Notes under the pieces: model-generated | What the model saw: only the letters and a program-made list of their open reading frames with translations | Told to the model about the DNA's origin: nothing | Databases searched by the model: none | In this document: positions 3,460-23,763 of the stretch, one piece after another | Layout of the letters: each line of letters opens with the position of its first letter | How positions within the stretch are numbered: the stretch's first letter is position 1 | Position numbers and translations under genes: made by a program | DNA from: Paecilomyces variotii | Taxonomy: Eukaryota | Reading direction: 5' to 3' (one strand) | Length of the DNA stretch: 23,763 bases | Assembly (NCBI GenBank): GCA_004022145.1 | Contig: RCNU01000004.1

Positions 3460-3730
3460 ACCGAAACCGGCTCAATATGGACTTAATTTCCCGATATGGC
3501 GGAACCCTCGGTTTCCGACAAAGAAAAGAAGACCCTTATGTCCGACACCAGCATCAAAGATTTTGCTTTTACGAACAGTTAACAAGTAAGGGCTAGTTTA
3601 CTAGAATGACGCTTATAAACCCTTTTAAGGTCTAGAACGATACGGGGTTAATTCGGCCGATATGTTTCCGATGGTTCTGGCAGACTACTCTAAGCTTTTA
3701 CCTGGCCATTACTGATTTATATATCTAGTC
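3460..3730 (+). promoter_or_regulatory. Putative MFS promoter with clustered CCG/CGG triplets (possible Zn(II)2Cys6 sites) and TATA-like elements
   Basis: CCGAAACCGG (~3461), CCGATATGGCGG (3491), CGGTTTCCGA (~3508), TCCGACA (3541) and CGGCCGATATGTTTCCGA (~3654). TATAAA at ~3614 and TATATAT at ~3718 lie upstream of ATG 3809. Confidence 0.35.
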
Positions 3731-3808
3731 GCCTCTCGTTCCTAAACAGCCATCCCTATATTCCCCTTCAACCTTGACACGGCTATCAGACTGCCAAGGT
3801 CACCTAAG

Positions 3809-5629
3809 ATGGCATTCATAATCCAGTATACACGACTGCGAAAGCAGGTTCTGCAGCAGTTGCAGGAGATGGACGCGGTGCAAGAGAAGGACGAGGTCGT
3901 ACCGACGCCAGCAGACGCCGATGTGACTAACCAGTCGCAACCGGGTAAGCCATACAACCCTTCACGCTATTGCCAGATCAGTGGAATCACGTTGGAAGAG
4001 GATTGTAACGGTGAACAGTACTTTCGAGTTGGATGGGCAGGGCCGGATGATCAGTTTAACCCGCGGAATTGGACCACGACACGACGTCTCTTTGCGACGC
4101 TCTTAGTATGTTTGATCGCTCTGGTAGCGACCTTGGCATCGTCCATTGATGCTGCAGTCATTACCCCAGCATCCAAGACGTTTGGAGTAGCCGAGGTGGT
4201 TGAATCGTTAGCCACGGGTATCTATCTGATCGGATTTGGCGTTGGCTCAGTGATCGCGAGTCCCTTGTCCGAAATGGTCGGTCGATACCCCGTGTACATC
4301 GGCGCCCTATCACTCTTTGCAGCATGGCTCCTGGGGGCAGCGTTGGCACCCAATATCGGAGCACAGATTGTCTTTCGCTTTCTGGCGGGAGTGTCCAGCG
4401 CCGCTCCGCTCACTGTGGCCGGAGGATCTGTCTCTGATGTCTGGGATACTCTGGAGAAGACATTCGCCTTTCCCTTTTTTGCAATCCAAGGATTTGGGGG
4501 TCCTTGTCTTGGTAAGGCCGTACAATGCAGAGACATGAGAGTCGAGGCTCATTAATCAATCTCTTTATAGGACCCGTCGTTGGTGCGTATATAGGCCAGA
4601 GCCCCCACATCGACTGGAGATGGACGGAATGGGTCATGCTTATCCTGAACGGTCTGATTATTACATTACTATTCCTGTTCAAACGTGAAACATTCGGTCC
4701 CCAGCTCCTTTACTACAAGGCTAGATTCTTCCGACAGGCTACAGGTGACCCGCGATTCAAAACCGAGCTGGAAGCTTCTGGGGTGGTGTCTGTAACCACA
4801 ACATTAAAGCGCCATTTCAGTCGTCCGTGGATCCTTGCCGTTGAGCCGATTGTCATATTTATGACCTTCTATCTCACCGTGGTTTACATCGTACTCTTCA
4901 CGTTCCTGGATGGGTGAGTATTGATTGTCCCGTGACTGCGACCCCGGTTTGGATTGTCTTGCTGATATCCTGACATAGTTACCCGGCCATATTTGGCCGT
5001 GTCCACCATATCAGCGATGGACTTGCGAACATCTGCTTCCTGGGCTTGTGGATAGGTATATTGCTGTCTATGTTGCTGGTTCCGATTCTGTACAAAAGAA
5101 CACAGAGACAGTTGAAGAAAGATGGCGACGACGGTTCTGGAAAAGTACTCAACCGAGAATCCCGTCTGTTCTTTGCCATGGTCGGGGCTCCGGCACTTCC
5201 AATCGGTCTCTTCTGGATGGGGTGGACAGATTTCGTGAGGATCCCTGTCTCGTGCAAAGCTCTTTCTAACACACTGTCTAATCGGTTGACATCTTACAGT
5301 CTTCTATTTCGATCTGGTCCCCATTGGTTGCCAGTGTCGCCGTCGGATTTGCCAATATTTGCATTTTCATGTCGGCGTACATGTATATCATCGACTCATA
5401 CTTACACTATGCTGCTTCGGCCCTCACATTTACCGCTCTCGTTCGATACCTGGCTGCTGGAGGCATGACTGTCGTCGGCATCCCGATGTACAATAATCTG
5501 GGCGTGCACTGGGCATTGACTGTGTTGGGTATTATCAGCGTCGTTGTGACGCCAATCCCCTACGTTCTGTACTTCTGGGGACCGAACCTGCGAAAGAGGA
5601 GCAAATGGGCCACGGCTATTTCAACCTGA
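3809..5629 (+). CDS. MFS multidrug/H+ antiporter (DHA1 family), 4 exons: 3809-4511, 4571-4913, 4979-5234, 5300-5629; 543 aa
   Basis: DHA1 motifs WAGPDDQFNPRNW, PLSEMVGRYPVY, FRFLAGVSSAAPLTVAGGSVSDVW, GPVVG, WRWTEW, ETFGP, EPIV, ESRL and YIIDSY..YAASA. Three GT-AG introns (4512-4570, 4914-4978, 5235-5299) give a continuous 1632-nt frame. Confidence 0.95.
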
Positions 5630-6010: not shown

Positions 6011-6293
6011 TTAAATAAAGATGTATTCGGGTTTCAGCTGGACCTTGTTACAGCTCAACGGGAGTTCAGGCTGGTAGTACTCGACGAGGTAGAAGATCTG
6101 AGGGGCGTTGTGCCACCAGTCGCAGACTAGAGATGTACCTGTCAGAAGAATTGTCCTAGTCGAAAAATAATAAAGAAAATTCGTCCAATATGGATTACCT
6201 ACCAAGCCAGCCACCGAAGCCGTCCTCAGCGTTCCACTCAAGACCACTGGAGTTGATAGAGAAGCCAGAAGTACCGTAGCCAGCGTTGACCTC
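6011..6293 (-). pseudogene. 3' fragment of a small, probably secreted, fungal protein gene (exons ~6293-6203 and 6126-6011); 5' half missing
   Basis: Splicing intron 6202-6127 (GTAGGT...CTGAC...TAG) gives EVNAGYGTSGFSINSSGLEWNAEDGFGGWL|VCDWWHNAPQIFYLVEYYQPELPLSCNKVQLKPEYIFI*. This resembles the C-terminus of a family of small secreted Pezizomycotina proteins (recalled from memory as DUF7907-like). There is an in-frame TGA about 12 codons upstream and no start codon or signal peptide in this frame. Confidence 0.7.
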
Positions 6294-6368
6294 ATTTTGA
6301 GATAGCAGATAACATGTCCGTGTAGGTCAGCCAATTCAGAAAGCAAAGTTGCCAATCGCCAGCAAGAG

Positions 6369-7555
6369 CTATGTCGCAGGAGTGAGGCCCATCGCTAGTA
6401 TCTTTTCCCTCGCCAAGGCTCGTAGCCTGTTCAAAGACAAATTGAAGGTTGTGTTCGCATTTCTACCCGGCGTGATATATGGCCCGAAAAGTTCGCCCAG
6501 GGTTATCGGAGGATCTCTTTGGACAGTAGCTGCGGGCACTGGGAAAAGCTGCTATAGATTATTAAAAATCCTCATTAGTACAAAATTGAAGTCTAATAAC
6601 TAAGAGCAAAAGAGAGAGAGAGAGAGAAGAAAAGAAAAGGAAAGAAAACATACCTCACGGTGAAGCTGGATTACCGCCCCGGCAGGATTTCGGTGCCATA
6701 CCTCGATTAAACCCGTAACATAACCGTTGGCAATTCTCGTCCACTTAAGAAGGATTACATAGGCCACGTCGAGACCACCAGAAAACCACAGATTCTTATC
6801 TGCTTCTAAGTGCGGCCAGCTCTCTGACCATCCGGACTCAACAATTACACGAGGGAGGGATCCATGTGTATCAGGACGAAGCAAGAGATCAGGTTCCTTA
6901 CTAGAACCTGTATAAACACCGGAGAAACCAGTGAACCCTAGTTATATAATATTAGTAAGAAATAACTATAAGTTAAGAGTCAATTATAAGAATTATACTA
7001 ACTGGTGCCAACATTCAGTTCTAAAAATAGAAACTCAGGAGGCGATAGAAACTGAGCCACAGTCATAAACCAAAGCTCGTTCTTAAGCCATTGCACATGT
7101 ACGTTATGAATTTCAGTGGGCATTATTAAAACTCGTAAGACCCCTGAAGCTGCGTTGAAATGGATTCTAAGAAATAATAGATTTATTAGTTAGGAATACT
7201 TGCATAATAGTTAAAGTGGAATATATATTTACCTTGGTAACGCTCTTTCAATGCGGGGTTCATTGGCAAGAGATACTGTCACCAAAGAGCCAATCTCAGG
7301 TGCAATATTCTCGCAGATTATTTCCTTACTGTCTTCAGCATGAAGGATTGCATTGCAAATATGAAGAAAAAGCTGTTGTGCAGTGAATGGTGCAGCAGAA
7401 TGTGCAGTGTTACTTCTGAGGTTATAAGCTGAAGTGCCAGTAGGTCCACAACTAGGCGAAGCAGAAAGTGGCGCAGAGAGTGAAGCTGATGGTGTGGTGT
7501 TGCTTCTGAGACTGCGCGGAGGCCCGCGATGCGGTGACCTACTATCCTCGTCCAT
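6369..7555 (-). CDS. Hypothetical protein with a PD-(D/E)XK-like (Uma2/restriction-endonuclease-like) core; 4 exons: 7555-7233, 7166-7003, 6937-6654, 6551-6369; 317 aa
   Basis: Three GT-AG introns (7232-7167, 7002-6938, 6653-6552) give an uninterrupted 954-nt frame. It contains LIMPTEIHNVH, GSSKEPDLLL, PRVIVESGWSESWPHLEADKNLW and VILLKW, and ends ...LRALAREKILAMGLTPAT* at TAG 6371-6369. Confidence 0.82.
6604..6648. repeat. (AG)n microsatellite within a polypurine tract, inside intron 3 of the nuclease-like gene
   Basis: AGAGAGAGAGAGAGAG at 6611-6626, followed by AAGAAAAGAAAAGGAAAGAAAA. Confidence 0.85.
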
Positions 7556-7683
7556 TGTGAGAACTGGACTGAAGGATGTGTAAAATCAAGTTGAGAAGGT
7601 GCTACCGCGTAGCGGGGGATGTGAGGGGTAAGAAGCTTGGATTCTATCCTCCGGGGGAGGACTTGGACATGCTATGCTGACTA

Positions 7684-8140
7684 CCGTGTTTGACCGCCTG
7701 CCGACTGTTTCCACCTGACGACTACCTTTTTCTCATAGAAAATTAGCAAAATTAAACCTTTATAACTCAACCATAATTAAATATTTTTATATAAAAATTG
7801 AATTCTAAATAATATAAAGGCTGAATTTTTAATTAATATAGATTTTATATAAAATATATTAATATATAGAGTACTATAAGTAGTTAAAGTTAATAAGTTT
7901 TTAAAAATATTAAACTTAATATTATTTAATTATTCTTTAATATTTTATTATAAGATTAATTATATATATTTTTTATACTATAAAGTTTATATAAAATCTA
8001 TAAAAGTTTAAAAAATAATAAGAATATAGTATAATAATAAATAAACTTTTTAAAATTAAATTTTAAATTAACTTTAAATTAATAAAATATATATAAATTC
8101 TTTATTTTAAAGCTTTAAATATTAATTATAATTATATTTT
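7684..8140 (+). repeat. Left long inverted arm of the foldback element
   Basis: Reverse-complement match to ~8575-9039, e.g. TAAATTAACTTTAAATTAATAAAATATATATAAATTCTTTATTTTAAAGCTTTAA (~8064-8118). The inner boundary is approximate. Confidence 0.85.
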
Positions 8141-8574
8141 ATAATACTACTTAAAAAAATAAAGTTTTTTAATTTTTATTATAATTTTTTTAAAGGTTTT
8201 ATTTTTATTATAAAAACTATAATCTTTATTATTTTAATAATATTATTATTAATATTAGCTTAAATATAGTATAAATAAAATTTTACATATAAAAATAATA
8301 AAAGAATAGAAATTATTTATATTCTTACTAAATATTTTTAAATAATATAAAATATACTTTTTAAAACAACTTAATTTATTAATATAAATAAATTTAACTA
8401 GAATATTTTAAGTTTTTTAATATTTTTTATTTTCTATATAAAATTATATATTAAGAAATAATAAATTTATATAGATTATTTATATAAATAAAAATTTTTA
8501 TATTTTAACTTTAAAAGTAAAATATTATATATTAATATATTATAAGCCTTTTTTAATACTTCTTTTAATACTAA

Positions 8575-9039
8575 TATAAATATATAATAATAATTAATAT
8601 ATTAAAGCTTTAAAATAAAGAATTTATATATATTTTATTAATTTAAAGTTAATTTAAAATTTATATTTTAAAAAGTTTATTTATTATTATTATACTATAT
8701 TCTTATTATTTTCTAAACTTTTATAGATTTTATATAAACTTTATAGTATAAAAAATATATATAATAAATTTTATAGAAAAAATATTAAAGAATAATTAAA
8801 TAATATTAAGTTAAAATTTTAATAATTTTACTAACTTTAACTGCTTATAATATTATAAATATTAATAAATTTAATAAAAAATTAAATTAATTAAAATTCT
8901 AGTATATATAGTATTTATATATTAAATTTCATTTTAAAATATTTAATTATGGTTAAGTTATAAAGGTTTAATTTTGCTGATTTTCTATGGGGAAAAGGTG
9001 GTTATCAGGTAGAAACGGTCAGCAGGCGGTCAAACACAG
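8575..9039 (-). repeat. Right long inverted arm of the foldback element
   Basis: Reverse complement of 7684-~8140. The outer ~100 bp differ only by C/T and G/A transitions. Confidence 0.85.
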
Positions 9040-9772
9040 TAAGTAAGTGACGATATTTTCACACAGGACAATGGCTGGCAGAAGCCATCTATCGCGTACC
9101 GCTCCCAAGTCGCTGAGAGTGGCCCACAGCACGCACTCGAGTATCTGATGAATGTATGTACGGAGTACTGGCGTACTGTTAATGATGTAGAAGTAAAGGT
9201 CTTAGCTCGTCCTCTAGAATCCGTCATATGCAGGGTCCAACTTGGCGAGACCTTAATTATTCCGCCGCAGGAAGGCGGTCAGATGAAATATCGGCAGAAT
9301 CACAACCAAACCAAGTCTAAAAGGCGGTACAAAGAGGCAGAAATAGCTAAGTACTGTTTGGACGCAGTAAAGTATCTCAGATAGACTCTTGGACAGCACA
9401 GAATAACGTTCTCCTCGACTTGATTCTACATCGGAGCGGAATTATTGTGACATACTGTCTTTTGCTTTTATAAAGAGGCGCCTTTAGATCAGAAGCATTC
9501 TCTGTTAACATCTCTCCTTGACTTCTGCTTATCCTCCCCATTGTTAATCGTAGGTAACCAGCGGTACTTAAGCACCTGCATAAGATAGTTGGGCTCTACA
9601 GCTGACTTGCGATCTGCTCGAGATCATACTGTTCAAACACGTCACATATCTAACTGACAGTGGTGCGTCTATTAAATCACACAAACGCAAGTTCCCATCA
9701 AGATAAAAGCAAACTAACCTCCACAATCCTCCTGAAAAATAGTCTAAAGACTCCTCCCCAGCCTATATCCAC

Positions 9773-9990
9773 ATGCACCATCCGCGCCTGGCGGACTTCT
9801 TCAAGAACTTCACACACCCTCACACCTCGCTTTACACCAATATCGCTCTCCGGTCCTCACAAAACCACCCATACGCCGCGTCGGGCGTAATATATGGCTC
9901 AACGGCCTCGGGCCCCACGGCCGTGCCATCCTTTTTGCCTATCGAGGACATCTATATACTACCGCAGAACTAGCCTTTGAACCCGGAGAA
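9773..9990 (+). pseudogene. 5' fragment of a small fungal hypothetical gene with a RIP-type nonsense change
   Basis: MHHPRLADFFKNFTHPH...PSFLPIEDIYILPQN*PLNPE. The TAG at 9971-9973 reads as CAG (Q), restoring a PQxQPxNPE motif recalled from a family of small ascomycete proteins. Resemblance stops right after NPE. Confidence 0.5.
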
Positions 9991-10132
9991 CCCGGCAGCT
10001 CTTCACTTTGAGATTGTGCCTGGGTTAATAATAAGGATACTGTACACAATATATACATGTCAGTAACGAGTTACCAGCAGTGGGTGTATTTATATACTAA
10101 CCTACTTTAATAAACGGGGGAAGCAGACTAGG

Positions 10133-10311
10133 TGTCATAGATGACAACCCAGACCTCCTTGGGTCACGTGACCGGAAGGTCACGTGACCCACCCAGTGTA
10201 CTTAGACTTCTCGGATCCTAGGATCTCTTCTGATCCTTAATAAGAATACCTTCGATAACTACATTATTGTATTCTTATTCTTTTTTATTAATTTTTTTTA
10301 TTATCTTATAA
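10133..10311 (+). repeat. Putative 5' LTR (end approximate)
   Basis: Begins TGTCA and contains two GGTCACGTGACC palindromes. It lies directly upstream of gag-pol. No second copy is present in the window to fix the end. Confidence 0.55.
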
Positions 10312-10460
10312 TTTAAAAGATTTTAAATTATTAAATAAACCTTTATACTTATACTATAAACTATAGAAAACCTTAATAAACTATAGTAATTTAAAGTAAA
10401 TAGTTAGAGATATATCTTTAAATAACTATATTTTTTAAAAGGCTATAGTTTTTTATAAAA

Positions 10461-10542
10461 AGACTATAAAAAACTAAAGTAATCTATAACTTACTATAGT
10501 TAGACTATAAAAAATTAAAGTAATCTATAACTTACTATAATT
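10461..10542. repeat. 41-bp tandem duplication in the retroelement leader
   Basis: AGACTATAAAAAACTAAAGTAATCTATAACTTACTATAGTT followed by AGACTATAAAAAATTAAAGTAATCTATAACTTACTATAATT (2 transitions). Confidence 0.9.
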
Positions 10543-10880
10543 ATAAATAATAAGATCTTACTATAATAATTTATATATAACTATAAGATTAAGTAAAATA
10601 ATTAACTCTTAACTTATAAATAATAGGAGAACTAGCCTTAATACTAAGAATTCTATAATATCTTTAAGTTATTAAAAATTAAATAGAGATTAATAAAACC
10701 CTTTATAAAATAATAATAATAAATAGTAATAATATAAAATATCTTTAATAATAATAGAAGTATAAGAGTAAACTTATATAAATATATTAATAAATAATAT
10801 AATAATAAGAATAATAAAATTATTTAAATACTTATAAGATATTTAATAAGAATTAGCTTTAAAGTAAAATAATAGCGCTT

Positions 10881-10985
10881 AATTATATATTTAATAGCTA
10901 TATATTTAGCAGTTATACTTTTAGTAACTATATATTTAGTAATTATATATTTAGTAGCTATAAACTTAATAGCTATAATTTAAGT
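10881..10985. repeat. 15-bp tandem repeat, ~7 copies, possibly a 5-aa repeat in the gag N-terminus
   Basis: Units AATTATATATTTAAT, AGCTATATATTTAGC, AGTTATACTTTTAGT, AACTATATATTTAGT, AATTATATATTTAGT, AGCTATAAACTTAAT, AGCTATAATTTAAGT. Confidence 0.8.
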
Positions 10986-11099
10986 AAGTAATAGCGCTTT
11001 AAATATAAATCTAAAAGCTTTAATAATAGCTAGAGACCTTAATCTAATAAGAATAAATATAGAGTATAATATAATTTAATAATAGTAGTAGTTAAAATT

Positions 11100-11952
11100 T
11101 AAAAGTTTTTATAACTTTAATTAATAAAAAGCTTAAACTTTAATATTTAAAGGCATTTAATAGTTTAATAGAAGAACTTAAATATTAGATTATAAAATTT
11201 AATAAATAGCTAGATAATAAAGCGCTATATAATATTAAAGAGTAAGCCTCTTATCTTTACTTATATATAAAGAGTAAGATAAAGAGATATTTAATAATAT
11301 TAAAGATTAATAATTTAAATAATTTAATATTCTAGAATTATATACTATTATACTATTAGTTACTAGACTATTATAAACTAGTAAACGCTAAGGTAATTAC
11401 TATATAAAGAATATTTAACCTTTAATAATATTTTAATTAACTACTTTAAGATTTTATTAATAAATTTAAAACTATTATAGTAGACTTAGATTAAAATAAT
11501 ATTACGCTAAATAATATATTTAGCTATAAGCTTATACCGCGTATTATCTATAAGATTTATTAAGAGTATTTTACTTACTAACTATATATATAGAATAAAA
11601 ATATATTACTTAATAAGTAGAGCTTTATATATAAAAAAGAAAATATTATATAAAATAATTACTTTAAGACTATTGCGGCTATTTTAATTTAAGTAAATCC
11701 TTTAATATATAAAGCTAATTACTTAATAGAGAAATAATAATAAAGAGTAAAGAGTAAGGATAAGACTATAAAAGACTACTTTAAATCTTCTAAGGAAATA
11801 AAAGATATAATCTATTAAATAAGGAATAGAAAAAACAGTATAATAAAGGCCTTTATTTAAAATATAATAAAAAAGGCTATTAAAAGAAGTAATACTTAAA
11901 GGCTTTTTAATTAGTAAAGGCTATAAATATAAAAAACTAAAGAGAAAACTAA
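11100..11952 (+). pseudogene. gag: RIP-degraded gag (start not determined)
   Basis: De-RIPed reading includes PEAFDGS..ELEHW, IFNLRQ, DFIDEFE...DLDWND and a Cx2Cx4Hx4C knuckle at 11854-11895 (TAT TTA AAA TAT AAT AAA AAA GGC TAT TAA AAG AAG TAA TAC). It ends GAA AAC TAA at 11944-11952. Confidence 0.8.
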
Positions 11953-13990
11953 CTTTAAAGGCCTACTCCCCTTAAAATAAGCTTAAATAATATACTAATA
12001 TAGTATTATTAACTTATTTAAGTATTATATAAATTTAAGTATTATTATCTTATATACTTATATTTAAGAAAATTAAAGTATTTATTTTAATCGTAGTACT
12101 ATTAGCTATAGAATATATTATAATATTAATAGTATTAATAAATAGTAATATAAATATAAACTATATTAATATAATAGTAATAGAATAAATTAAAGAAATC
12201 TGCTTAATATTAGGACTAGTTTTACTATTAAGTATATAAGATATTAATAATATAGAACTAGTAAAACTAATAAAGTATTACTTTAAACTATATTATATAA
12301 TTTTAAGTAAAGAAATAAAACTCTATATATTTAAAGTATTACTAATAGCATTTAATATAATTCTTAGCTTATTATAGTTAATATTAGAGAATCTATTAAT
12401 TAACTAGAATAAAAAAAATATCTTAAAGTAATTAGCTAAGTAATAAAAGCTTCTTAAAATAAATTATATAATAAAATTAAAAGAAGATATAGAGAATAAT
12501 ATTAAAGAGAGTTTTATATTTATATTTTATTTAGGCTTACTTATAATAGTAATAAACTTAAAAAATAAAAAAGACTTAGTAACTATTAAAATACTATAGT
12601 AATATATAGATTTAGCCTAAATATTTAATAAGAAAGAAGCTAATACCTACCTCTATAAAGACTAAATATTAATTATAAGATTAACCTTATTAAAGGTATA
12701 GTATTACTATATAGACCTTATTACTATTTATTAAAGTAAGATTTAAAATATAAATATATTTAGCTATTTAATATACTATATACTTTATTATTACTATTTA
12801 TACTTAAAAGGCTTAAAGTTTTATAGCTTTATATAGATTTTAGAGCTATTAATAAAAAAATACTTAAAAATAAATACTTAGTTTTAATAATAAATAATTT
12901 ATTTTTAAGGCTATAAAATACAGTTATTTTTACCTATTTAAACTTCTGCTTAGCGTATTACTTAATCTATATAATAGAAGAATATAAATAGAAAACTGCT
13001 TTTTATATAAAATATAGTTTATTTAAGTAATAAGTAATATTATTTAGTCTCTATAATACTCTAGTAATATTTTAAGTATTTATAGACTTAGTACTTAAAT
13101 AGTATATTAATAAATATTATATAATATATTTAGATAATATACTTATCTTTAGCTATAATATTAGTCTTTATACTTAGTATATAAGAGTAGTTCTTTAAAG
13201 CTTATTAAATAATAGTCTATTTTATAAATTAAAAAAATATAAATTCTCTATATTTAAAGTTATATTCTTAGAGTTTATAATTATATCTTAAAGAGTAATA
13301 ATAAATAAATAGTAAATAAATACTATTACTATTTAGCCTATATTAATATTAATAATAAGCTTAAGCTAATTCTTTAAGTTCTATAATTTTTATTATTAGT
13401 TTATTAAGTATTATAGTTAAATTACTTTTCTATTAACTTAACTTATAAAATATAATATATTATTTATATAAGAAGAAAAAGCTTAAATAAGCTTTTAAAT
13501 ATTTAAGAAATACTTTATAGAGATACTATTATTAAAATATTTTAACTTAAATAAATAGCGCTTATTAAAAATAAATATAAGCGGCTTTATTAAATTAATA
13601 ATATTAAGCTAAGTTTTTAAAGATAAAATATAATATCTTATTATATTTTATAATATTAAATTTATAAATATAAAGTTATATTAGCTAACTTATAAGTAAA
13701 AGTTATTTATTATTATTAATACCTTTAAGGTTTAAAGGTATTTTTTAATTAAAATAAATAAACTAGTTAAAATAATTATAAACTATAATAATTTAAAATA
13801 TTTCTTAATAATATAAATTTTATTTAAGAAATAAGTAAAATAAGTAAAATATCTTTTATAATTTTATTTCTATATTAAATATAAGCTTAAGAAGTATAAT
13901 TCTATTAATAGCTTATTATATTAAAATAATTATAAATCTTAATAAATACTAAAGAATATATTAATATAATTTTTAAAGATTAAAATAATA
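11950..13990 (+). pseudogene. pol: RIP-degraded pol: aspartic protease, reverse transcriptase, RNase H
   Basis: VLINSN (=ALIDSG) at 12132 and FNIILSLL*L (=FDVILGLPWL) at 12351. RT motifs LCVDFRAIN, WKTAF, VMPFGLCNAP and YLDN (=YLDD) at 13127-13138. RNase H motifs ETDASG (~13570), TDHNNLKYF and NPADGLSR (~13900). A 1-nt frameshift lies near 12650. Confidence 0.9.
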
Positions 13991-14890
13991 TAGTATATAA
14001 AGAGATACTATTATTTTAAAATATTATTATAAAAGCTATCTTTAAATTAAGAGTAAGAATAAGATATCTTCTTATAAGACTAAATAAAGCATAGTTATAT
14101 TTATTATAGTACTAGCGCGGGAAATAAGTTACTTAAGAAGATTTACTAGTTAATACTTACTTAATCTAAAAGAGTAAAGCTTAACTTTTTTAAATTATAT
14201 AAGGAACTATATAACCTTATAAAAGATATCTTTAATATATAGCTTAATCTAGATTTAAGCTTTTTAAGCTATATTTTATTTACTAAGCCTACTTATAATA
14301 GCTTATTTTAATTTAAATTAACTAAATAAAGATCTTATAACTAGTAATATAAATTTATATCTAGGCTTAATATATTAGTTAGCATAAAATAGCGAATACT
14401 TAGTTATCCTTATATATTTAGTAAGAGTAGTTCTTAGAAATAAAAGAATAACTTCTTCTTCTCTAAAGTTATCTCTAGTTTTAAAACCCTAGGTTTACTA
14501 TTAAATAATAGTATATTACTATTAATCTAAGGCCTTCTACTATTAATTTTAATATTTATATATTATCTTAAATTTTTATATTATTTTATATCTCTATTAA
14601 TATAGGACTTATTATAAGTCTCTGTAATTAGCATTAATTAGCTCTATTAATTATTATATTTTATTACCTCTTATTATTAATTATTATACTTAATTACCTC
14701 TTATTTATATTATTATTTTAGCTATATTTTCTATTAGAATTATATAGGTAATTGCTCTTACTAGTAGTTTATTAGCACAGAATTTATTATTAGGTCTTTA
14801 CTAGAGATAGTATTAAATACTTCTATTAGTTTTTATTAGTTTTTTTCTATTATTATTATTTTATTATTATATTCTTATTATAGTATTATT

Positions 14891-14952
14891 AGAATATAGC
14901 TTAGCCTAGCTAAGGCTAAGCTTAGCCTACCTAAAAAGCTCAGCCTACCTAA
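14891..14952 (+). repeat. Left TIR of the MULE-like element (heavily RIPed)
   Basis: Matches the reverse complement of ~21220-21281, mostly via C>T/G>A changes. Confidence 0.8.
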
Positions 14953-15099
14953 GAAAAATCTAGGTTTAGCTTAGATACTAAGTTAGTTTTAATATAGCGT
15001 TTAGATAGGCTTAATATATATATAGCTTATATAACTTATAATAAAATTTTTATATTATATTGCAGTAAACTATATTTATTAAAAACTATATATAATATA

Positions 15100-17050
15100 T
15101 ACTCTATACTATATTATAGTATATGCTAAGTATAAGTTAGAGTAATACTAGGATATATATAGGGAGCTAGAACTGATATTATTCTGCGCAGTTTACTAAG
15201 ACAGTATATATAAAGGCAGTTATTAAGCATATATTAAAGTAATATTAGAATCCTATTATATAAAAATTCATATTATTTATATTATTTTTAACCTCCTTAA
15301 TAATACCTTTACCTTATCTCTATAATATTACAGTCTATTCTCTTATATTACTGCTATATAATTATAAAAATACTGCTATATTTAAAGAAACTCCTTACCT
15401 GCAATATAGTTTTATTAGCAGATAATTTAACAAACTATAAATATTACTATAATAAGTATATCTCCGCTTAATATTAAATATATATTAAATAAAAATAGGC
15501 CTAGTTCTTAACCTAAATCTAATATAAATCTTAAATTTATATACTATAGCTAAGTAGGAAAATAAGAAATTTAATAAGTAGATATTATATATATACTAAA
15601 AGTATACTAAATATAAATAATGCCTGCAATTATTACTAAAAAAAATACTTATATACTAACTCTTAAATCTTCTATCTTAAATATAAATAGGAATATATAA
15701 GTCCTTTCTTTAAAATTAACTAAGTATATGCTAAGCTTTTATAGTTACTAAGTATAAGTAAATATAAATAGCTTACTTATATATAATAAGATTATTAATT
15801 TATAGCCTATTATAAGTTTAATATAAGTTCTATATATATATAATATACTAATAGTTAAAGTTATAATATTATATAAGAACTATATACCTAGTAAGCTAGG
15901 GGTAAGTATATTATTATCCTTAGCATATACTAAATATATATTAATCTATTATAGTATTAAACTATAATATAGAGACTAATAATATAACTATAGATAAGAA
16001 GATAATTAGGCTATAATAAGTTTAAGATCTATTTTATATATATTAGAGCTACGCTAATAATATATAATATACTAATTAAATATATTTTGCTTAGTAAGTA
16101 GTAAGATATTAATTTTATTTATAAACTATAGTAAGTCTTAAGTATATATAGAGCTTATATTAAGCTAATATTTCTTTTAGTACAGGAAGTATATTAATTA
16201 AAGATATTACTATATCTTATAAAAAAATAGCTTATATTAATAATAAGTTTAAAAATAGCTATAAAAGCTAGTTTTATTAGAAAATAAGTTTAGTATATAT
16301 TAATATATAAATAGAATCTATATGCTATCTTCTTTATTATTTATATTATTATTTATATTGCTATTTATATATAACTTATAACTCTTAGTAAGCTTTTTAA
16401 ATATATTTAATATATACCTAATATTAACTTTAATTAATCTTAGCCTTTATTCTAGTATTTTATACTTTTATTAACCCTATCTTATAAATATATAATAAAT
16501 ATACCCTTGCCTATATTATATATATACTAATCTTATATAGACTAAAAATATCTTATTACTATAAGATAATAATAATAGAAATAATAATAAGTAGTCTTCT
16601 AATTTATCTTATATATATGCTAAATTAAGTTATAATATAAGTCTTATCTTAACTTTATTAAAGCATAAATAGTCTATATCTTATAATAAATATATAAATA
16701 AATATATTACTAATAAAGAAATATTAACTAAATTAAAATATAGCTATACTTATAGTTATAACTATAGATATTCTTATAATACTAGTAGCTATAGTATTAA
16801 GTTTATTAATAAGTTCTTCCCTTCTATATATAGAGTATATGTTAAGTTTATATCTATAAGTTATAATCTCCTTTTTTAAGGATAAGTTTTTAGAGGCCTT
16901 AAATATATAGATATTTAAGCTTAGCTCTCCCCTAAGCATATACTTAATATTAAACTTTAGTTTAATGCTAAGCTCTTATATTTAAAGATTATTAATGCTA
17001 AACTTTAGTTTAATACTAAATTCTTATACTTAAAGATTATTTTTCTATAT
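15100..17050 (-). pseudogene. Second, unidentified RIP-degraded coding relic inside the MULE-like element (strand and bounds uncertain)
   Basis: A surviving 68-aa ORF at 16939-16733, codon-like periodicity, an acidic stretch after de-RIPing (~16420-16280), an intron-like minus-strand segment near 16075-16030 and an in-frame 48-bp repeat. Confidence 0.35.
16945..17040. repeat. 48-bp tandem duplication (16 codons)
   Basis: 16945-16992 and 16993-17040 differ only by transitions. Confidence 0.88.
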
Positions 17051-17099
17051 CTTTAAATAATTATAATATAATATTCTTTATTTTTTTATTTATTCTTAT

Positions 17100-20000
17100 T
17101 ATAGGGGAAAAAAAATATATATATATATATTTACTATATAACTATAGCTATATAGATATATATATTTATTATATAAACTGCTATAATAATCTTTCTCTTT
17201 CTTACTTAAATTCTTATTACCTTTACTTTATTATTTTTCTTAATTAAATAATAAAATTAGTCTCTACTATTTCTTTTAATAAGGGTCTTCTATTATAATA
17301 TATATAAGCTCTATTTTATCTAGAATCTATACTTAACTCCTAGATAATATATGCTAGATATAGAGTTAGTATATACTCTAGATTAAAACTAGCAGAGCTA
17401 TTTAAATCTAATAAAGAGGTTTAAACCCTTCTAGATATTAGGACAGTATTAAATTAAACCTAGTCTTAAATATAACTAAAACCTCTAGGTTTACCCTTTC
17501 CTTAACCTCTATTTAGTATATACTTTTTACTTAATCTGTATTAAGAAATATAATCTGAGTTTAATTCTTTAGAGCTTAGCTTAGTTTACTTAGTCCTAGA
17601 TTAAATCTAGCTCTAATAATAATTAGAACCTCTAGATTAACTCCTTTTTTAACCTTTATTTAGTATATACTCTATATTTAATCTATATTAAGAATAATAA
17701 TCTAAGTCTAATTTTTTAGAGCTTAGCTTAGTCTGCTTAATCTTAGATTAAACTTAGCTCTAATAATAACTAAAACCTCTAGATTAACCCCTTTCTTAAC
17801 CTTTACTTAATATATGCTCTATAGATATTTTATCTTTAGCCAGTATATATTTAGCAGAAGGTTTAAATAAGGATATTAAAATAATCTTAAAATTAGTATT
17901 TTTATCAGAAGATTAATTATTACTATTATCTAAAGGTATATTATAGAGATTATTAGGATTAAATAGTAAATAAGATTAATTTATTTAATAATTAGCAGCT
18001 CTTTAATTCTATTAGTCTAAAAGATATATTTAGTATATGTTTAAAGGTATATTAAACTTTTATCTTACTATTTCTCTATATCTATTAGGAAATCTATATA
18101 GTATTACTATAGTTTTATTATATATTATTAATACTATAGTTAAAAAGCTTTTATTATTTAATAATATCTTCTATATATTATTATAGACTAAATATAAATT
18201 AGCCTTATTAATATTTAATCTATGCTAGATAAATACTAAGTATATATTAAGTATAAATATACTATTAAATAGCCCCTAGTAAAGATAAGTTTCTCCCTAT
18301 ATTATAATTATCTTAGAAGTAATTATTTTTAAATAATCTAGTATGCTTTTAAATATAACTCTACTATTTAAAAGGGATTTTTAATATTTCCTATAATAAT
18401 ATAATAAAAATCTATAATTTTATTTTATTTTAAAGCTATTTTTTAGTATCTAGATATTCCTTATCTTATTAATATATAGTTTAAAGGATTTCTTAATAAA
18501 AATATAGATCCTATAGATATTTCAGTTAATAAATAAGAGAATAAGATCTTTTAAACTTCTTATAAAAATTGCGTTTAATATATATTTAGTAAAAGATAAG
18601 TATATACTTAAGATATTCTTACTAGTTAAGGGAAAGATAAATAAAATATAAATAATTACTAAAGCCTAAATATACTTAGCATATATTCTGTATTTATTAA
18701 GATAATACTAACTAAATGCTTATTTCTTATATATATTTATAGTAACAGTCTATATCTCTTCTTTATTTAAAATATATGCCTATTAAATATATTAATATAT
18801 AGCTTATAATAATGTTTAAAATAATAATTTAAATATTTAAAAATATATATAATAAGTTTATAGAGAGATAAAAGTATAGTAATAGATATTAATCCTTAAT
18901 ATAAAATTAATATATATTAAACACATAATAAGGAGAAGTCAAATATATGTCTAGCTTTAGAATTCTAGCTTAAGATTAAAAAGATATTTATATTTCTAAG
19001 TATTATCTTATAAGCTAAATCTATTTTAAGATATTTAGTTTTTATAAATACTTTTACTTAAGTATTTATATAATAAATAATAATATATTCTCTAGTTTTA
19101 CTAATATTAATTATATAAATTTATTATTTATTACTTTCTTTATATTAGTTAAACTTATACTCTTATATAACCCCTATATAGTATTAATATATATAAAATA
19201 TATAATAAGAATAGATTCTAACTAATAATATCTAAACTAAATAAATATTATAGAAGTTTTTATTTTTAAATTAAATAAGTAATTTTATCTTTAATATTAA
19301 AAGAAGCTCTAATTGAATTTAAAGCTTAACCTTAATACTTTTACTTAAATATATATATTTTAAGAGATATTAAGAATTTGTCTATAAATATCTAGTCAGT
19401 ATATATAAAATATAGGCTTAAGATATATATAATATATGCGCAGTTATAATAAAAATATCTCCTTAATTAATTAGATCTATAAGTTCTTAAATAAAATCTT
19501 AACTTAACTTAGTTAGTAATAGAGAAAAATATATATAATTTTCTTAATAAATAAGAAGAATAAAAAAAAATAATCTTAATTATAAGAAATAAAAATATTA
19601 ATTAAAATATTATATTCTTTATATAGGACTTTAGATATATTTTAAAGATAGTTGAATTCTAGACCTATAGTTAATATATGCCTAGTATATATAGAGCAAA
19701 TACCTATTATAAGTTATGCGCCTTAAAGTAATATAATTAATATAGGTATAAGTAAATTAAATAAAAGTATTAGTATTATATATCCTATAAGCTATTAAGG
19801 TATATAAATAAGGTATATAAATTTAAGCTATATATATAGAGATAGCTTATACAATATACTATAGTTTAAAATCACTTATTAATAAGCAATTAATAAAGGT
19901 AACTAATAGCTAAGAATATATTTAGCATATATTAAGATTAAATATAGAGTTAAACTTATTTTATACTATTTAAAGATTACTAGAGTTTAATTTAAATATA

Positions 20001-20900
20001 TCTATATTTTACTTTCTGAATAAAAATAATATCCTGCTAATTATTAATTCTAAAAATAAAGAAATTTATTATACTAATTTTTAATTTTTCTTTTAAAAAA
20101 TTTACTAGCAGAAATAGTATTAGATATATAGCTTACTTTTTTATAAAGTATTTTAAAGATATTTAGTTTAATATAGCTATATTTATAATATTGTCTAAAT
20201 ATATGCTCTAATATATACTTGCAATATTTAATGCTATTGCATTTATATGCCTAATAGTATATTTTATTTTAAATTTTATCCTTTTTATTCTTTTAAAGAA
20301 GTAGAAGAGATAAAGTCTTATAATTGCCTTAAGCATAAAGCCTAAACTAGATCTAAACTATATTTAGTATATACTTATAATATATTAAATATCTGCTTAA
20401 GATAAGGTATAGATATATCTTTAATAAAAGTTATTAAAATATTTAATAGATATTTATATTAAAATAATTATAAGATAAAAGATTCTTTTAATAAATAAAA
20501 TATAAGATATTATTAAAATAAATTGTTAGATATTTAGAAATAAATAATTTATCCTAAATATTATTAACTATAATCTTAGAGATACTACTATAGCTAATAA
20601 TAATGCCTATAAGAAAAATAGCCTCCTAGATATACTTAGCATATACTCTGCTAGAACTTATATAAAAAAAATATATTTAATTAAGTCTTATATAAAGAGG
20701 AAATTTAAGATATATCTTAAATTTTTTATCTTCACTTTTTATATAGGAATAGATATTACTTCAATTACTTATTATATCTTTAAACTAGTTTAGGTATATT
20801 TTATAAAGATTATAATTCTATATAAATTTGCTCTATAGTAAGTTAGCGTCTAATCTAAATATAATAAATACTAAATATATGTTTAATATCTACTAGGCCT
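17100..20900 (-). pseudogene. Multi-intron DDE transposase relic, Mutator-like (boundaries approximate)
   Basis: De-RIPed minus-strand motifs in order: PEYPTT (20538-20521), CNGIKHCEY (20241-20215), HTHFPPPPTK (19540-19508), EIDLAYKM (D at 19021-19019), VTVDMCKKQA (D at 18737-18735), intron 18712-18666, GFGDYL, LIFCQVHVKRNF (CxxH at 18591-18580), WLQNK..PWI, SKIPFEWW, KHTGLSESSH (E at 18330-18328), GRNLSLLGAI. Confidence 0.78.
17453..17823. repeat. 147-bp tandem repeat (~2.5 copies; 49 codons) in the probable transposase C-terminal tail
   Basis: The anchor ACCTCTAG occurs at 17481, 17628 and 17775. Confidence 0.88.
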
Positions 20901-21219
20901 CTATAAGAATTATATTAATATACCTAGATAAAAATATTATGCAGTTATTAACTGAGAATATTATTAACTTAGCTATTAGTTATAATTACTTAATTCTTAG
21001 CTATTTTTAGGTATTTAAAGAAAAAGTAATAATATTTAGCTTTATATTAGCTATTATATATATATATATTATAAATTCTAAAGAGTTTTATTATATAAAT
21101 ATTATTATTAATCCTTAAATAGGCTAATCTTATATTAATTATATAATCGGCTTATGCCGAGCTTATACTTAATCTGTGCATAAGATAGGTTAAGCTTAAC
21201 CTAGCTAAAGATAAGCTCT

Positions 21220-21281
21220 AGGGTAAGCTGAGCTCCTAGGGTGGGCTGAGCTTGGCCTCGGCTAGGCCGAGGTATATACCC
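21220..21281 (-). repeat. Right TIR of the MULE-like element (nearly un-RIPed), with an internal hairpin and GCTGAGC sub-repeats
   Basis: GGGTAAGCTGAGCTCCTAGGGTGGGCTGAGCTTGGCCTCGGCTAGGCCGAGGTATATACCC. Hairpin CCTCGGC-TAG-GCCGAGG at 21256-21272. Confidence 0.8.
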
Positions 21282-21850
21282 TAGTATTATTATCTTTATT
21301 AATAGTAACTATATTAAGGTATATAATATTAAATATAGTCTTATTAAGTACTAATAATAAAAGCTACTTAAGAGATTTCTTTAATATTTATTATAATTAA
21401 ACTAGCTTATTAAATTACTATCTTTTATTAGGTAAAGTTATTCTAGAGAAATTAATTTAATTATAAGATAGTTAATTTAATTAACTTTATAATATTATTT
21501 TATAAGAATATTAAGATAAATTTAGCTAAACTTAAGTTATCTTTATTTATATTAGTAGACTATCTCTTCCTATATATTAAAAAAAGATATATATAAAAGT
21601 TTTTATATCTATATAATTAAGTTATTAATTAATTAGCTTTTAATTATATAATAAAAAACTTTCTATATTTAACTATAATATTAGCTAAATTCTCTATATT
21701 TCTATATTAGTAGAGAGAAATACTTAGAAAAACCTATAATAAGCTAGTATAATTATTAGGAAAAGTATAGTAAGTATAAATATATATTCTATAAGCCCTA
21801 AGTATTATTAGCTCTTAAGAACTAGAGCATTAATTATTATTATTTAATAC
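21282..21850 (-). pseudogene. RIP-degraded coding relic interrupted by the MULE-like insertion (appears to continue at 14880 and below)
   Basis: A codon-like minus-strand frame reads plausibly across the TSD when the element is removed. No family recognised. Confidence 0.3.
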
Positions 21851-23049
21851 TCTTTTATAGTAGTAAAATAGCTAAGATAATATTAGCAGATTAATATTAC
21901 TATTAGTATTATTATTATAATAATTAATATTAAATCTATTAATAAGTACTATCTTACGATTAATATTATAGGAATTATTAACTTTAAGATATAAGTTATT
22001 ATTATTTAAATATAAACCCCTAATAAATAAAATAGAAGTACTTAGGTCTTAATATATAATAGAGGTATTTAATAGTAATAATACTATAAATACTATAATA
22101 AATAATATAATAATAAATCTAACTTATTATTTTTTAAACTTTAACTTAATAATAATATAAATAATAAAAGAAATAATAAAATAAAATAAGGTATCTATAG
22201 AATAAAACTACTAACTTATAAGCTACCTTTTAAATTAAAATAATTAGATCTAGAGTAAAGGTAGAAGCTAAGACTAATACTAAGAAATACTTAAGAATAA
22301 TATATCTTTAAGAGATAGTATGCGGGGCGATTAGAGGCAAAATAACCTTAAATATTTCTTTCTTAATTTAAAGGATAATAATTATATTAAAAATAGCCCT
22401 ATTATAATATTAGGTAATTATATATATTATAGAAATATCCTAATATTTATTAATTAAATTAAGGATATAGTAATAGATAAGGGTAAGCTTATAATTAAGA
22501 TATATATATATATATTATTAAGAGGAGCTGCATTATAATAATTTATAGCTAAACTAACTTAATTTAAAAAAGATCTATTTAAGTAGCTATTTATAGAATA
22601 AGGCTAAATATTATTATTATTAAAATAATTTAAGAAAAATACTACTATAATAATATAGAAGCTTAATTAGCTATTTTATAATATACTTAATATCTAAGAG
22701 GGTAAGACCTTATAGAGGTTTATCTAATTAATTATATACTTAATATAAGTATTTAGCACTAGTTTAATATATAGCTAGATTTTTCTAATATAAAATAAAC
22801 TAGATCTTAACCTTAAATAAAATATATAAATCTTAACTAAAAATATATTCTTAGGAGATTTTATATTAAAACTAAAAGGAGTATATATAATTTAGCAGGA
22901 ATAAGCTATAAGTAGTAGTAAATAGCTAAGAGTTAATAATAATAATAAGTAAGCTTTAGTAATTATATATTTAGTAATTAATAATAGTTTCTTTCTAACT
23001 TTAAAATAAAATACTCTATAGACTTAAGATAGTAAGCTAATAATAATAT

Positions 23050-23720
23050 ATAAAAAAGTATAAATAAATATAAATATTAGCAGTAGTAATAAATACTATA
23101 AATATAAAATTATTAATATTAGTAAAGACTATAAATATTGTAGATATAGAGCTATTAATACTAATAAAGGTAATAAATATTATAATAAATACTATAGGCG
23201 CTATAAGTATAGCTTTAATAGATATTCCTATAGTAATTATATATTAACTTAAATTATTAGTAAGAATATTAATAATAAAAGTCTTACCTAGAAGATAATA
23301 TTTATATAGAAATATTTATATAATATTTTATAACTAGTAAGAGTATATTATAAGTATTATTATAATATAGGTAATATAAACTATAATAATAATTTAGCAT
23401 ATAGATAATATAAAGATAGCAATAACTTTTAGAAAGGCTTTTATTAAAGTATATATTATATTAATTAGAATAATAACAGTAAGAATTATTAAGCTTATAA
23501 AGACTTTCTTAACTAAGAAAAGCAGGATTTTTAAAACTAAGGTTTTAATAAAGCTATAAACCTTAAGTATGCTAAAGATAGCTTTAAATATTAGTCTATT
23601 AATATAAATTATATTAATTCTAATATTTTTATATAATATAAATATAGGCTTTACTATAATTTTTTTATCTCTAGTAATTATCTATATAATTATTTATATA
23701 AGGTTAATTTCTATAGAGTA
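23050..23720 (-). pseudogene. RIP-degraded coding relic with a Ser/Thr-rich low-complexity segment
   Basis: A long codon-periodic frame whose stops are all TAA/TAG. The de-RIPed reading near 23220-23070 is S/T-rich. No TE motif recognised. Confidence 0.25.
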
Positions 23721-23763
23721 ACTAAATAAATATAATCTTAACCTATATTTAATATAGCTATAG

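Follow-up and report, generated by a model that had tools for sequence, protein, structure and literature searches.

A block of DNA with 82% A+T in contig RCNU01000004.1 of Paecilomyces variotii raises the question of whether a complete transposon lies hidden in it and, if so, to which superfamily this transposon belongs. An earlier note on the window (the whole stretch of 23,763 nucleotides analysed here) had proposed a structurally complete Mutator-like element under RIP, carrying a spliced DDE transposase and a second gene. According to our analysis, positions 14891-21281 represent one inactivated member of a multi-copy family of class II (cut-and-paste) TIR transposons in a filamentous fungus, which most likely falls in the Mutator (MULE) superfamily.

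Termini of the element

The RIP-killed element measures 6,391 bp (window 14891-21281) and is delimited by the following features:

14881..14890, no strand: left TSD, TAGTATTATT, identical to 21282-21291
14891..14954, plus strand: left TIR, heavily RIP-mutated, starting AGAATATAGC (inverted-repeat search, alignment, purine/pyrimidine control)
14918..14952, plus strand: 18-bp subterminal tandem repeat in the left TIR, 1.9 copies (period 18, 94% matches)
21214..21252, plus strand: 18-bp subterminal tandem repeat in the right TIR, 2.2 copies (tandem-repeat search)
21256..21272, no strand: palindrome CCTCGGC-TAG-GCCGAGG, 10-26 nt from the right terminus (read directly)
21217..21281, minus strand: right TIR, less mutated, reading from the outside in GGGTATATACCTCGGCC... 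(alignment with the left arm)
21282..21291, no strand: right TSD, TAGTATTATT, identical to the left TSD

The perfect 10-bp TSD that had been claimed is present on both sides of the element. Its 10-mer occurs four times on the plus strand of the window, and 44 of 200,000 random 10-mer pairs drawn from the AT-rich part were identical (about 2.2e-4). The length of 10 bp is read from one copy, and 9 or 11 bp would also be possible because the TIR alignment contains a 1-nt offset. The TIR arms (14894-14954 and 21217-21277, 61 nt) are 75% complementary, and the alignment with this offset comprises 58 positions, including 43 identities, 12 transitions and three transversions. Since RIP alters bases by transitions only, which a purine/pyrimidine code ignores, the arms can be compared in that code, where they agree at 55 of 58 positions as against 29.0 +/- 3.9 (maximum 43) in 20,000 random pairs; the purine/pyrimidine control on the TIRs gave 62 nt at 95% identity. 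Moreover, the G+C-rich 41-nt core of the TIR matches at the two termini only within the window. As for the expected GGG/CCC ends of these ~60-bp TIRs, the TIRs themselves and the CCC of the right terminus were found, while the left terminus now reads AGA, which fits GGG after G>A mutation, as expected. Loose ends of further copies in the contigs, at 21271 and 21273, likewise terminate in CCC. The palindrome of the right TIR has a RIP-mutated mirror in the left TIR, and the 18-bp array of the left TIR mirrors that of the right one.

RIP damage and further copies

The G+C content of the element is only 18%, and its TpA/ApT and (CpA+TpG)/(ApC+GpT) indices are 1.33 and 0.31, compared with 0.82 and 1.19 in the genic part of the window. 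RIP later replaced most C by T and most G by A in the element, which shows the raised first index, the lowered second index and the largely transition-only pattern of a RIP-affected repeat. With ends, TSD and RIP indices all found, the description of a structurally complete TIR/TSD transposon under RIP stands. Each frame of the element contains 237-246 stops and no ORF of at least 80 aa occurs within it; the ORF track, as had been remarked, misses the transposase. A copy with this many stops gives no support to the earlier label of a non-canonical element.

The contigs of four public runs reveal that the element belongs to a multi-copy family, whose members differ almost solely by transitions. 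Between 2,163 and 4,717 contigs per run were placed on an 8.4-kb stretch at 80% likeness, and the alternative letter at the listed variant positions within the element is mostly carried by 6-24 contigs per run. In run X1, the copies differ by 1,437 transitions (A>G 415, T>C 356, C>T 360, G>A 306) versus 33 transversions. Summed contig depth, a poor measure of copy number when taken over unitigs, is higher in bins 14731-21450 than in most flanking bins and rises within the bins containing the element ends. The joint of 14890 to 21292 (the empty site) was not among the 15 joints listed out of 80, which is not evidence of its absence. Within the window, both blastn and purine/pyrimidine-coded blastn for a second copy returned short low-complexity matches only, and a degenerate TIR pattern run on metagenome contigs gave two matches, both by chance, in contigs of 69-79% GC.

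These observations bear on the view that there is no element at all and that the inverted and direct repeats arose by chance in low-complexity DNA. The 82% A+T composition, the 2,266 inverted pairs in the region and the four occurrences of TAGTATTATT would suit it; however, the purine/pyrimidine identity of the arms tops all 20,000 random pairs, the TIR core is confined to the two termini, other copies finish at the same CCC, depth rises at the element ends, and independent ORF fragments of the family exist (see below). This view is close to refuted.

A tandem array lies inside the element:

17453..17823, no strand: 147-bp tandem array, 2.5 to 3 copies (period 147, 84% matches, score 517)

Relative to the minus-strand transposase core it lies downstream, and the contig depth of bin 17531-17810 is raised 2- to 4-fold.

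The depth profile also touches on whether the element is of one piece. It might be a composite of a shorter MULE and nested or captured unrelated sequence, in which the left 2.5 kb and the putative second gene would not be original. In its favour, the summed depth of run X1 is 6,235-15,031 over 14731-17250, about half of the 14,889-25,299 over 17811-21170, some contigs have other sequence in front of the last ~55 bp of the right TIR (loose ends 21227 and 21229), and coding evidence was not found in the left part, which was searched with Pfam only. However, summed unitig depth is unreliable for copy number, and neither an internal TIR-like site nor a second copy was detected in the window at the DNA or purine/pyrimidine level, and we consider a composite origin quite unlikely.

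Remnant of the transposase

A phmmer search of minus-strand read-through frame 0 (window 17682-21281) against 1.84 billion representative proteins returned two matches, P0001 and P0002, which are ORF fragments from less-mutated copies of the family; for frames 1 and 2 and the left 2.8 kb, the search was limited to Pfam. P0002, which is encoded on a 5.5-kb contig, outlines the putative catalytic region:

19004..19027, minus strand: candidate first Asp motif, observed KIDLAYKI, RIP-compatible with EIDLAYKM (single site, frame 1)
18561..18985, minus strand: transposase catalytic-core remnant, homologous to P0002 residues 8-146, with a 1-nt frameshift near 18887
18720..18746, minus strand: second Asp motif, observed VTINIYKK*; VTVDMCKKQ in the less-mutated copy
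18681..18692, minus strand: CxxH motif, observed YRIY; CGAH in P0002 (frame 0)

The P0002 match (E 1.6e-4, 32% identity) covers 139 positions, of which 45 are identical, 55 RIP-compatible, six transition-compatible and 33 other, and its alignment across the frameshift scores 222 versus 29.5 +/- 3.5 in 20 shuffles. Near 18887 the remnant switches from frame 1 to frame 0, and because the open ORF of P0002 reads straight across this point, the switch is a 1-nt frameshift and not an intron; it is the single testable frame change, and the idea of a spliced gene is not supported. With about 240 stops per frame and at least one frameshift in the catalytic core, the copy is therefore unable to encode a transposase.

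Two of the motifs guessed earlier after reversal of RIP were recovered. EIDLAYKM is RIP-compatible at 19004-19027, directly upstream of the P0002 alignment, and its last codon coincides with Met1 of P0002, while VTVDMCKKQ corresponds to AVTVDMCKKQA in P0002. The Asp of EIDLAYKM may be the catalytic D1, and it is located about 92 residues upstream of the second Asp. In P0002 the latter is followed by a CxxH in the layout D88-x14-C103-G-A-H106, i.e., with Cys at +15 and His at +18. Two further guesses were not confirmed. CQVH (18670-18681) was in the wrong frame, lying in frame 2 where P0002 has CGAH in frame 0, and sites RIP-compatible with CQVH are common (10 on the minus and eight on the plus strand). 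TGLSESSH (18319-18342) lies in frame 2 too, but frame 0 is both the frame with few stops at this place and the one used by the less-mutated ORFs. Neither the catalytic Glu nor the Trp expected before it was located, and both the site of the Glu and the catalytic function assigned to the two Asp residues are putative.

Searches with P0002 yielded no Pfam family at E <= 1, no relative among longer proteins and only itself among proteins of near length, chance-level rows only in NCBIfam, PHROGs and PDB sequences, and no match in genome contigs and viral contigs. AlphaFold2 modelling of P0002 alone gave a mean pLDDT of 39.4, too low for the model to be of use. In the ESM Atlas, rows 1 and 3 are PF10551 MULE clusters (19% and 45% of members) at a score of 0.77, which is below the level often reached by shuffled proteins, and MULE and ZSWIM RNaseH-like are the sole family names among the nearest clusters. 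As well, Pfam returned no families at E <= 10 for all six read-through frames of the window, and a homologous-protein search with frame 0 residues 341-640 of the 900-aa query examined 6,845 candidates, none at E <= 10. RIP damage of this degree leaves about 45% amino-acid identity to the ancestor, so the missing Pfam match of the window is to be expected, and search failure is expected for relatives less than about 50% identical to the ancestor.

P0001 and the putative second gene

Upstream on the same strand, P0001 matches a further stretch:

19980..20336, minus strand: stretch matched by P0001, a 119-aa ORF of uncertain coding status (E 3.3e-33, 62% identity)

Of its 119 positions, 73 are identical to the window, 46 RIP-compatible and none other, which means that all 46 of the 46 differences fall at RIP-compatible codons. 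P0001 has a low ESM Atlas recognition value (975) and belongs to no family there. The upstream motifs of the earlier note were not confirmed: CxGIKxCEY has a single RIP-compatible site (20215-20241), in frame 2, while the P0001 ORF covers the same DNA in frame 0, which is also the low-stop frame there, and HxHxPPP has five minus-strand sites versus 0.74 expected in shuffles. Codon-class (purine/pyrimidine) and stop-density scans gave weak frame signals only, favouring frame 0 of the minus strand in two intervals that lie 450-1100 and 2550-3250 nt inward of the right end, and no support was obtained for a second gene.

Superfamily assignment and proposed mechanism

Membership in Mutator is suggested by the TSD length, the TIR architecture, the D...D-CxxH layout and a weak language-model lead. 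The 10-bp TSD, the long TIRs with a GGG end and the D...CxxH of the proposed Mutator-like element were found, and a Pfam MULE match was not. According to excerpts of PMC6446971 and PMC5225508, the TSDs of MULEs are 8-11 bp in length (PMC6446971), their TIRs are long (both papers), and a CxxH after the second Asp is common to MULE and hAT transposases (PMC5225508); the one copy here has a TSD of 10 bp and TIRs of ~60 bp with a GGG motif and 18-bp subterminal repeats. Neither CxxH nor long TSDs are exclusive to Mutator, as both are also found in hAT (excerpts of PMC5225508 and PMC5499845), and the spacing from the second Asp to His is 18 as compared with 24 in Muta1.

The element could instead be a RIP-killed TIR transposon of another or an uncatalogued DDE superfamily, hAT-related or new, whose 10-bp duplications are coincidental. 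Consistent with this, neither the window frames nor P0002 matched Pfam MULE (PF10551) or Transposase_mut (PF00872), relatives other than the family's own fragments are absent among the 1.84 billion representatives, and the first-Asp motif DLAYK differs from the usual MULE form, besides the CxxH being shared with hAT. However, a 10-bp TSD is a Mutator trait among superfamilies and hAT makes 8 bp, the TIRs with their GGG terminus and subterminal repeats suit MULEs (as excerpted from PMC5499845), the nearest ESM clusters name MULE and ZSWIM RNaseH-like only, and failed searches are expected at the divergence given above. We regard another superfamily as unlikely and retain Mutator.

In a Mutator-type scheme, the minus strand would have encoded a DDE transposase that recognised the ~60-bp TIRs by their terminal GGG motif, their palindrome and their 18-bp subterminal repeats, to which it bound. 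After excision, this enzyme would have inserted the element at a staggered cut of about 10 bp, the repair of which would have duplicated TAGTATTATT. RIP and the frameshift have since left the copy unable to encode its transposase.

The copy is a genuine relic of a mobile element, though an unremarkable one, most likely of the common Mutator type. MULEs are ubiquitous in fungi, with 17,658 copies catalogued (excerpt of PMC5751038), and earlier work has described two-gene fungal MULEs of similar size (Mutyl) as well as MULEs of Ascomycota whose TIRs measure 85-99 bp (excerpt of PMC6446971). It seems rather improbable to us that these copies stem from an uncatalogued, divergent branch of DDE transposases related (or sister) to Mutator, which would occur in this fungal lineage alone and would have lost all its copies to RIP. 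In favour of such a branch, P0002, the least-mutated fragment known, which spans the first-Asp flank, the second Asp and CxxH, has no Pfam match, no relative other than debris of the family itself was found among 1.84 billion representative proteins, and the spacings (~92 and 18) are unusual. If the family were such a lineage, its anatomy would be defined by the intact ends. The biological interest is modest: a multi-copy DNA transposon family with complete ends, silenced by genome defence in an AT-rich block adjoining ordinary genes. RIP-killed relics of this kind evade ORF- and Pfam-based annotation yet remain recognisable, and ORF fragments from copies with less mutation offer a match for their read-through frames.

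Comparison with known transposons

The hAT elements differ from the one described here in having 8-bp TSDs and short TIRs, and their first-Asp block is D-x-W, while no Trp-compatible codon is present at that place here. In common with MULEs, they have a CxxH that follows the second Asp, and both groups also possess a conserved Trp and use hairpin-on-flank chemistry (excerpt of PMC5499845).

Among fungal MULEs, compared by features described in excerpts of PMC6446971, the Hop group (the Ascomycota sub-group of clade 35, with Hop of Fusarium oxysporum) likewise lives in ascomycetes and resembles the element in its TIRs, which are some tens of bp long (85-99 bp listed), in having one or two ORFs and a DDE transposase with CxxH, and in a TSD in the MULE range; the TIRs here are ~60 bp, the first-Asp motif is DLAYK and no CCHC finger was confirmed. 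Mutyl of Yarrowia lipolytica is similar in its 9-10-bp TSD, its length with two ORFs and its fungal host, but has 22-bp TIRs, whereas the present element carries RIP-type mutation and its second ORF is putative.

Muta1 of Aedes aegypti, an experimentally active MULE, has a terminus of the GGG...CCC type followed by subterminal tandem repeats, as here; in Muta1 the terminal motif and these repeats are needed for binding and cleavage (excerpt of PMC5499845). Its motif reads GGGTCTACCC, the copy in the window GGGTATATACC, and a less-mutated copy from run X6 ends GGGCCTAC (one contig, 8 letters). The D...D...CxxH layout of Muta1 (D214, D283, H307 and E419, according to an excerpt of PMC5225508) also resembles that of the element, with differences in the TSD (8-9 bp), the D-D spacing (69 versus ~92 here) and the D-to-His spacing (24 versus 18 here). 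Muta1 is an intact animal element, whereas the one described here is a RIP-killed fungal copy.

Termini of the element

The element (14891-21281) is flanked by the perfect 10-bp target site duplication (TSD) described in the earlier note, since TAGTATTATT stands at both 14881-14890 and 21282-21291 and encloses 6,391 bp. Two random 10-mers from the AT-rich DNA of the window are identical in 44 of 200,000 cases, so a TSD at positions set by the ends of the terminal inverted repeats (TIRs) is no chance product. A repeat search of the window delimited TIR arms of 61 nt (14894-14954 and 21217-21277; 75% complementary), which, when aligned over 58 positions with a 1-nt offset at the tip, proved identical at 43 of them, with 12 transitions and 3 transversions at the rest. 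In purine/pyrimidine code, which is blind to transition mutations including repeat-induced point mutation (RIP; C>T/G>A), 55 of the 58 positions are alike, compared with 29.0 ± 3.9 (maximum 43) in 20,000 random 58-mer pairs drawn from the window's AT-rich part; an origin of this structure by chance is very unlikely. Moreover, the two termini are the sole matches to the 41-nt G+C-rich TIR core window-wide (at most 6 purine/pyrimidine mismatches). The previously noted TIRs of about 60 bp with GGG/CCC ends are thus borne out: the right arm, the less mutated of the two, reads GGGTATATACCTCGGCCTAGCCGAGG from the outside inward, with GGG at its tip, while the left arm starts AGAATATAGC, which fits G>A mutation. 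Each arm carries one palindrome with a 7-bp stem, 10-26 nt from the tip, and the following repeats were recorded:

14918-14952: 18-bp tandem repeat in the left TIR
21214-21252: 18-bp tandem repeat in the right TIR
21256-21272: palindrome CCTCGGC-TAG-GCCGAGG in the right TIR (7-bp stem, 10-26 nt from the tip)

RIP damage and surrounding DNA

The element has a GC content of 18%, a TpA/ApT index of 1.33 and a (CpA+TpG)/(ApC+GpT) index of 0.31, against 47%, 0.82 and 1.19, respectively, for the first, gene-bearing 7.5 kb of the window. There are 237-246 stop codons per minus-strand frame of about 2,130 codons, and no ORF of at least 80 aa lies within the element. The claim of a transposon hidden under RIP is supported. 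The AT-rich block around the element (10001-23763; GC 11-29% per 500 bp) has RIP indices no less extreme than those of the element and adjoins a gene-bearing part:

2-868, plus strand: UbiD-family decarboxylase, C-terminal part (PF01977, 4.7e-34; PF20696, 2.7e-24)
3809-4917, plus strand: set of exons of an MFS transporter (PF07690, 7.8e-11)

The AT-rich blocks 7501-9000, 10001-14880 and 21292-23763, with (CpA+TpG)/(ApC+GpT) of 0.11-0.15, are more extreme than the element, with a GC minimum of 6% at 8001-8500, and are probably other RIP-destroyed repeats. The 1-kb island at 9001-10000 (GC 46-49%) gave no Pfam match in six frames.

A multi-copy family in public contigs

No second copy of the element was found within the window by blastn, either plain or purine/pyrimidine-coded. 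The public sequencing runs of one organism that carry the stretch have contig sets of about 31-35 million letters each (one 71), and small shares of its sampled words also occur in a few food-fermentation and grain metagenomes. When contigs of four runs (three studies) were aligned to 13891-22281 at 80% likeness, 2,163-4,717 contigs per run were obtained, and the other letter was carried, in most cases, by 6-24 contigs per run at the listed variant positions within the element. Nearly all differences are transitions; run X1 shows A>G 415, T>C 356, C>T 360 and G>A 306, as against 33 transversions. Such a pattern is that of a repeat family in which RIP mutated each copy independently, and the present copy, transition-saturated and frameshifted, is one of many such copies and a relic silenced by RIP. 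At the 280-nt resolution of the bins, the proposed ends agree with the summed contig depth, which goes up in bin 14731-15010 and drops beyond 21171-21450, and other copies have loose ends at 21271 and 21273 that likewise end in CCC. The 15 of 80 joints listed included no empty-site joint, which carries no weight either way.

By far the highest summed depth was in bin 14171-14450 (X1, 111,843 vs 2,674-41,585 elsewhere), which points to a different repeat of very high copy number some 450 bp to the left of the element. As well, in contigs of runs X6, X7 and X18 the right TIR's terminal ~55 bp (21227-21281) follows unrelated, partly G+C-rich sequence, suggesting shorter or non-autonomous elements, or a differing number of subterminal repeats, with common ends.

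Protein relatives and candidate transposase motifs

Pfam gave no match in the six read-through frames, nor did a word-indexed search of proteins queried with the minus-strand frame that is most open. Search power was gauged with three ordinary window ORFs brought down to 18% GC by in-silico mutation; their translations remained 42-49% identical to the originals and scored 196-339 bits against them. With the mutated ORF embedded in junk translation and a library size of 1.84 billion, targets artificially diverged by 50% were recovered in 3/3 cases, 60% diverged in 2/3 at E ≤ 0.001, and 70% diverged in 1/3. An exhaustive search with minus-strand frame 0 of 17682-21281 (stops as X) returned two proteins, P0001 and P0002. 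P0001 (119 aa, E 3.3e-33) spans 19980-20336 with 73/119 residues identical to the window codons, and all of the other 46 are RIP-compatible, i.e., the residue has a codon that C>T/G>A turns into the window codon. P0002 (176 aa, E 1.6e-4; one source, two contigs of the Logan assemblies) aligns through residues 8-146 with 18561-18985 in a frameshift- and RIP-aware alignment (45 identical, 55 RIP-compatible, 6 transition-compatible, 33 other), its score being 222, whereas 20 shuffled versions of P0002 gave 29.5 ± 3.5 (maximum 42). On these RIP-aware alignments, both are ORFs from less-mutated copies of the element's family. Searches among longer and near-length proteins yielded no further relatives of P0002, and its AlphaFold2 model (pLDDT 39.4) was unusable.

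P0002 contains the segment EGIRAVTVDMCKKQAGGRHMLCLCGAHAKRVQAW, by which the de-RIPed VTVDMCKKQ (18720-18746) of the earlier note proved exactly right. The CxxH after this Asp is CGAH (Cys +15, His +18; 18681-18692, frame 0), not the CQVH formerly read from almost identical positions in frame 2; four-residue de-RIP matching is permissive, as CQVH fits 10 sites on the minus and 8 on the plus strand. EIDLAYKM (19004-19027, frame 1) held up as a lone RIP-compatible site with its last residue as Met1 of P0002, which places a first Asp, as a candidate only, about 92 residues ahead of the second. The proposed splicing was not upheld: the shift of the window from frame 1 into frame 0 near 18887 is a 1-nt frameshift of this copy, since P0002 is open there, and an intron at this point was rejected accordingly.

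Among the other candidate motifs, TGLSESSH (18319-18342) lies in frame 2, while stops there are rarest in frame 0 (5-6 vs 14-17 per 100 codons); CxGIKxCEY (20215-20241) is in frame 2, whereas P0001 is open in frame 0; and HxHxPPP has 5 minus-strand sites vs 0.74 expected from shuffles. The catalytic Glu was not located, and no evidence for the suggested second gene was obtained, with the left 2.8 kb covered by Pfam. Minus-strand frame 2 of 20215-20385 (84% A+T) stays open for 57 codons, overlapping the P0001 region, itself in another frame. Two internal arrays may be coding repeats or minisatellites:

17453-17823: tandem array of 147 bp (a multiple of three), 2.5-3 copies, 84% matches
16944-17041: tandem array of 48 bp, 2 copies

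Assignment and comparison with known elements

The element probably belongs to the Mutator superfamily, judging from the 10-bp TSD, the TIR architecture (GGG tip, palindrome and subterminal tandem repeats), the D...D-x15-CxxH layout and the ESM Atlas clusters nearest to P0002, namely PF10551 MULE (19% and 45% of members) and ZSWIM1-3 RNaseH-like, at a score of 0.77, below the level often reached by shuffled proteins. The TSD length, taken from one copy, falls within the 8-11 bp given for Mutator-like elements (MULEs) (PMC6446971), which are also described with TSDs of 8-10 bp and long TIRs (PMC5225508). This argues against another, or an uncatalogued, DDE group, an unlikely origin to which two observations would nevertheless lend themselves: CxxH and a conserved Trp are common to MULE and hAT (PMC5225508), and P0002 has no match in Pfam, NCBIfam, PHROGs or PDB. 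A divergent lineage without intact relatives appears still less probable; the failed searches are compatible with it, yet also expected because of RIP damage. For a Mutator-type element, the transposase would cut leaving a hairpin on the flanking DNA, and the 3' ends would join into a target cut in a staggered way, from which the 10-bp duplication would result.

Fungal MULEs are reported to be ubiquitous (PMC5751038), and the element is best filed as a transposon of an already described kind, likened to known MULEs by their published descriptions. Ascomycete Hop-group elements have 85-99-bp TIRs and one or two ORFs, Mutyl has two ORFs and 9-10-bp TSDs, and Phantom MULEs of aphids carry a minisatellite after the transposase ORF (PMC6446971). 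Transposase binding, cleavage and excision of Muta1, an active MULE, are controlled by its terminal motif GGGTCTACCC and subterminal repeats (PMC5499845), comparable to the GGG tip and subterminal repeats of the element. Similarly, the D/D/H order of Muta1 (D214, D283, H307, W401, E419; PMC5225508) has its counterpart in the second Asp followed by CxxH in P0002.
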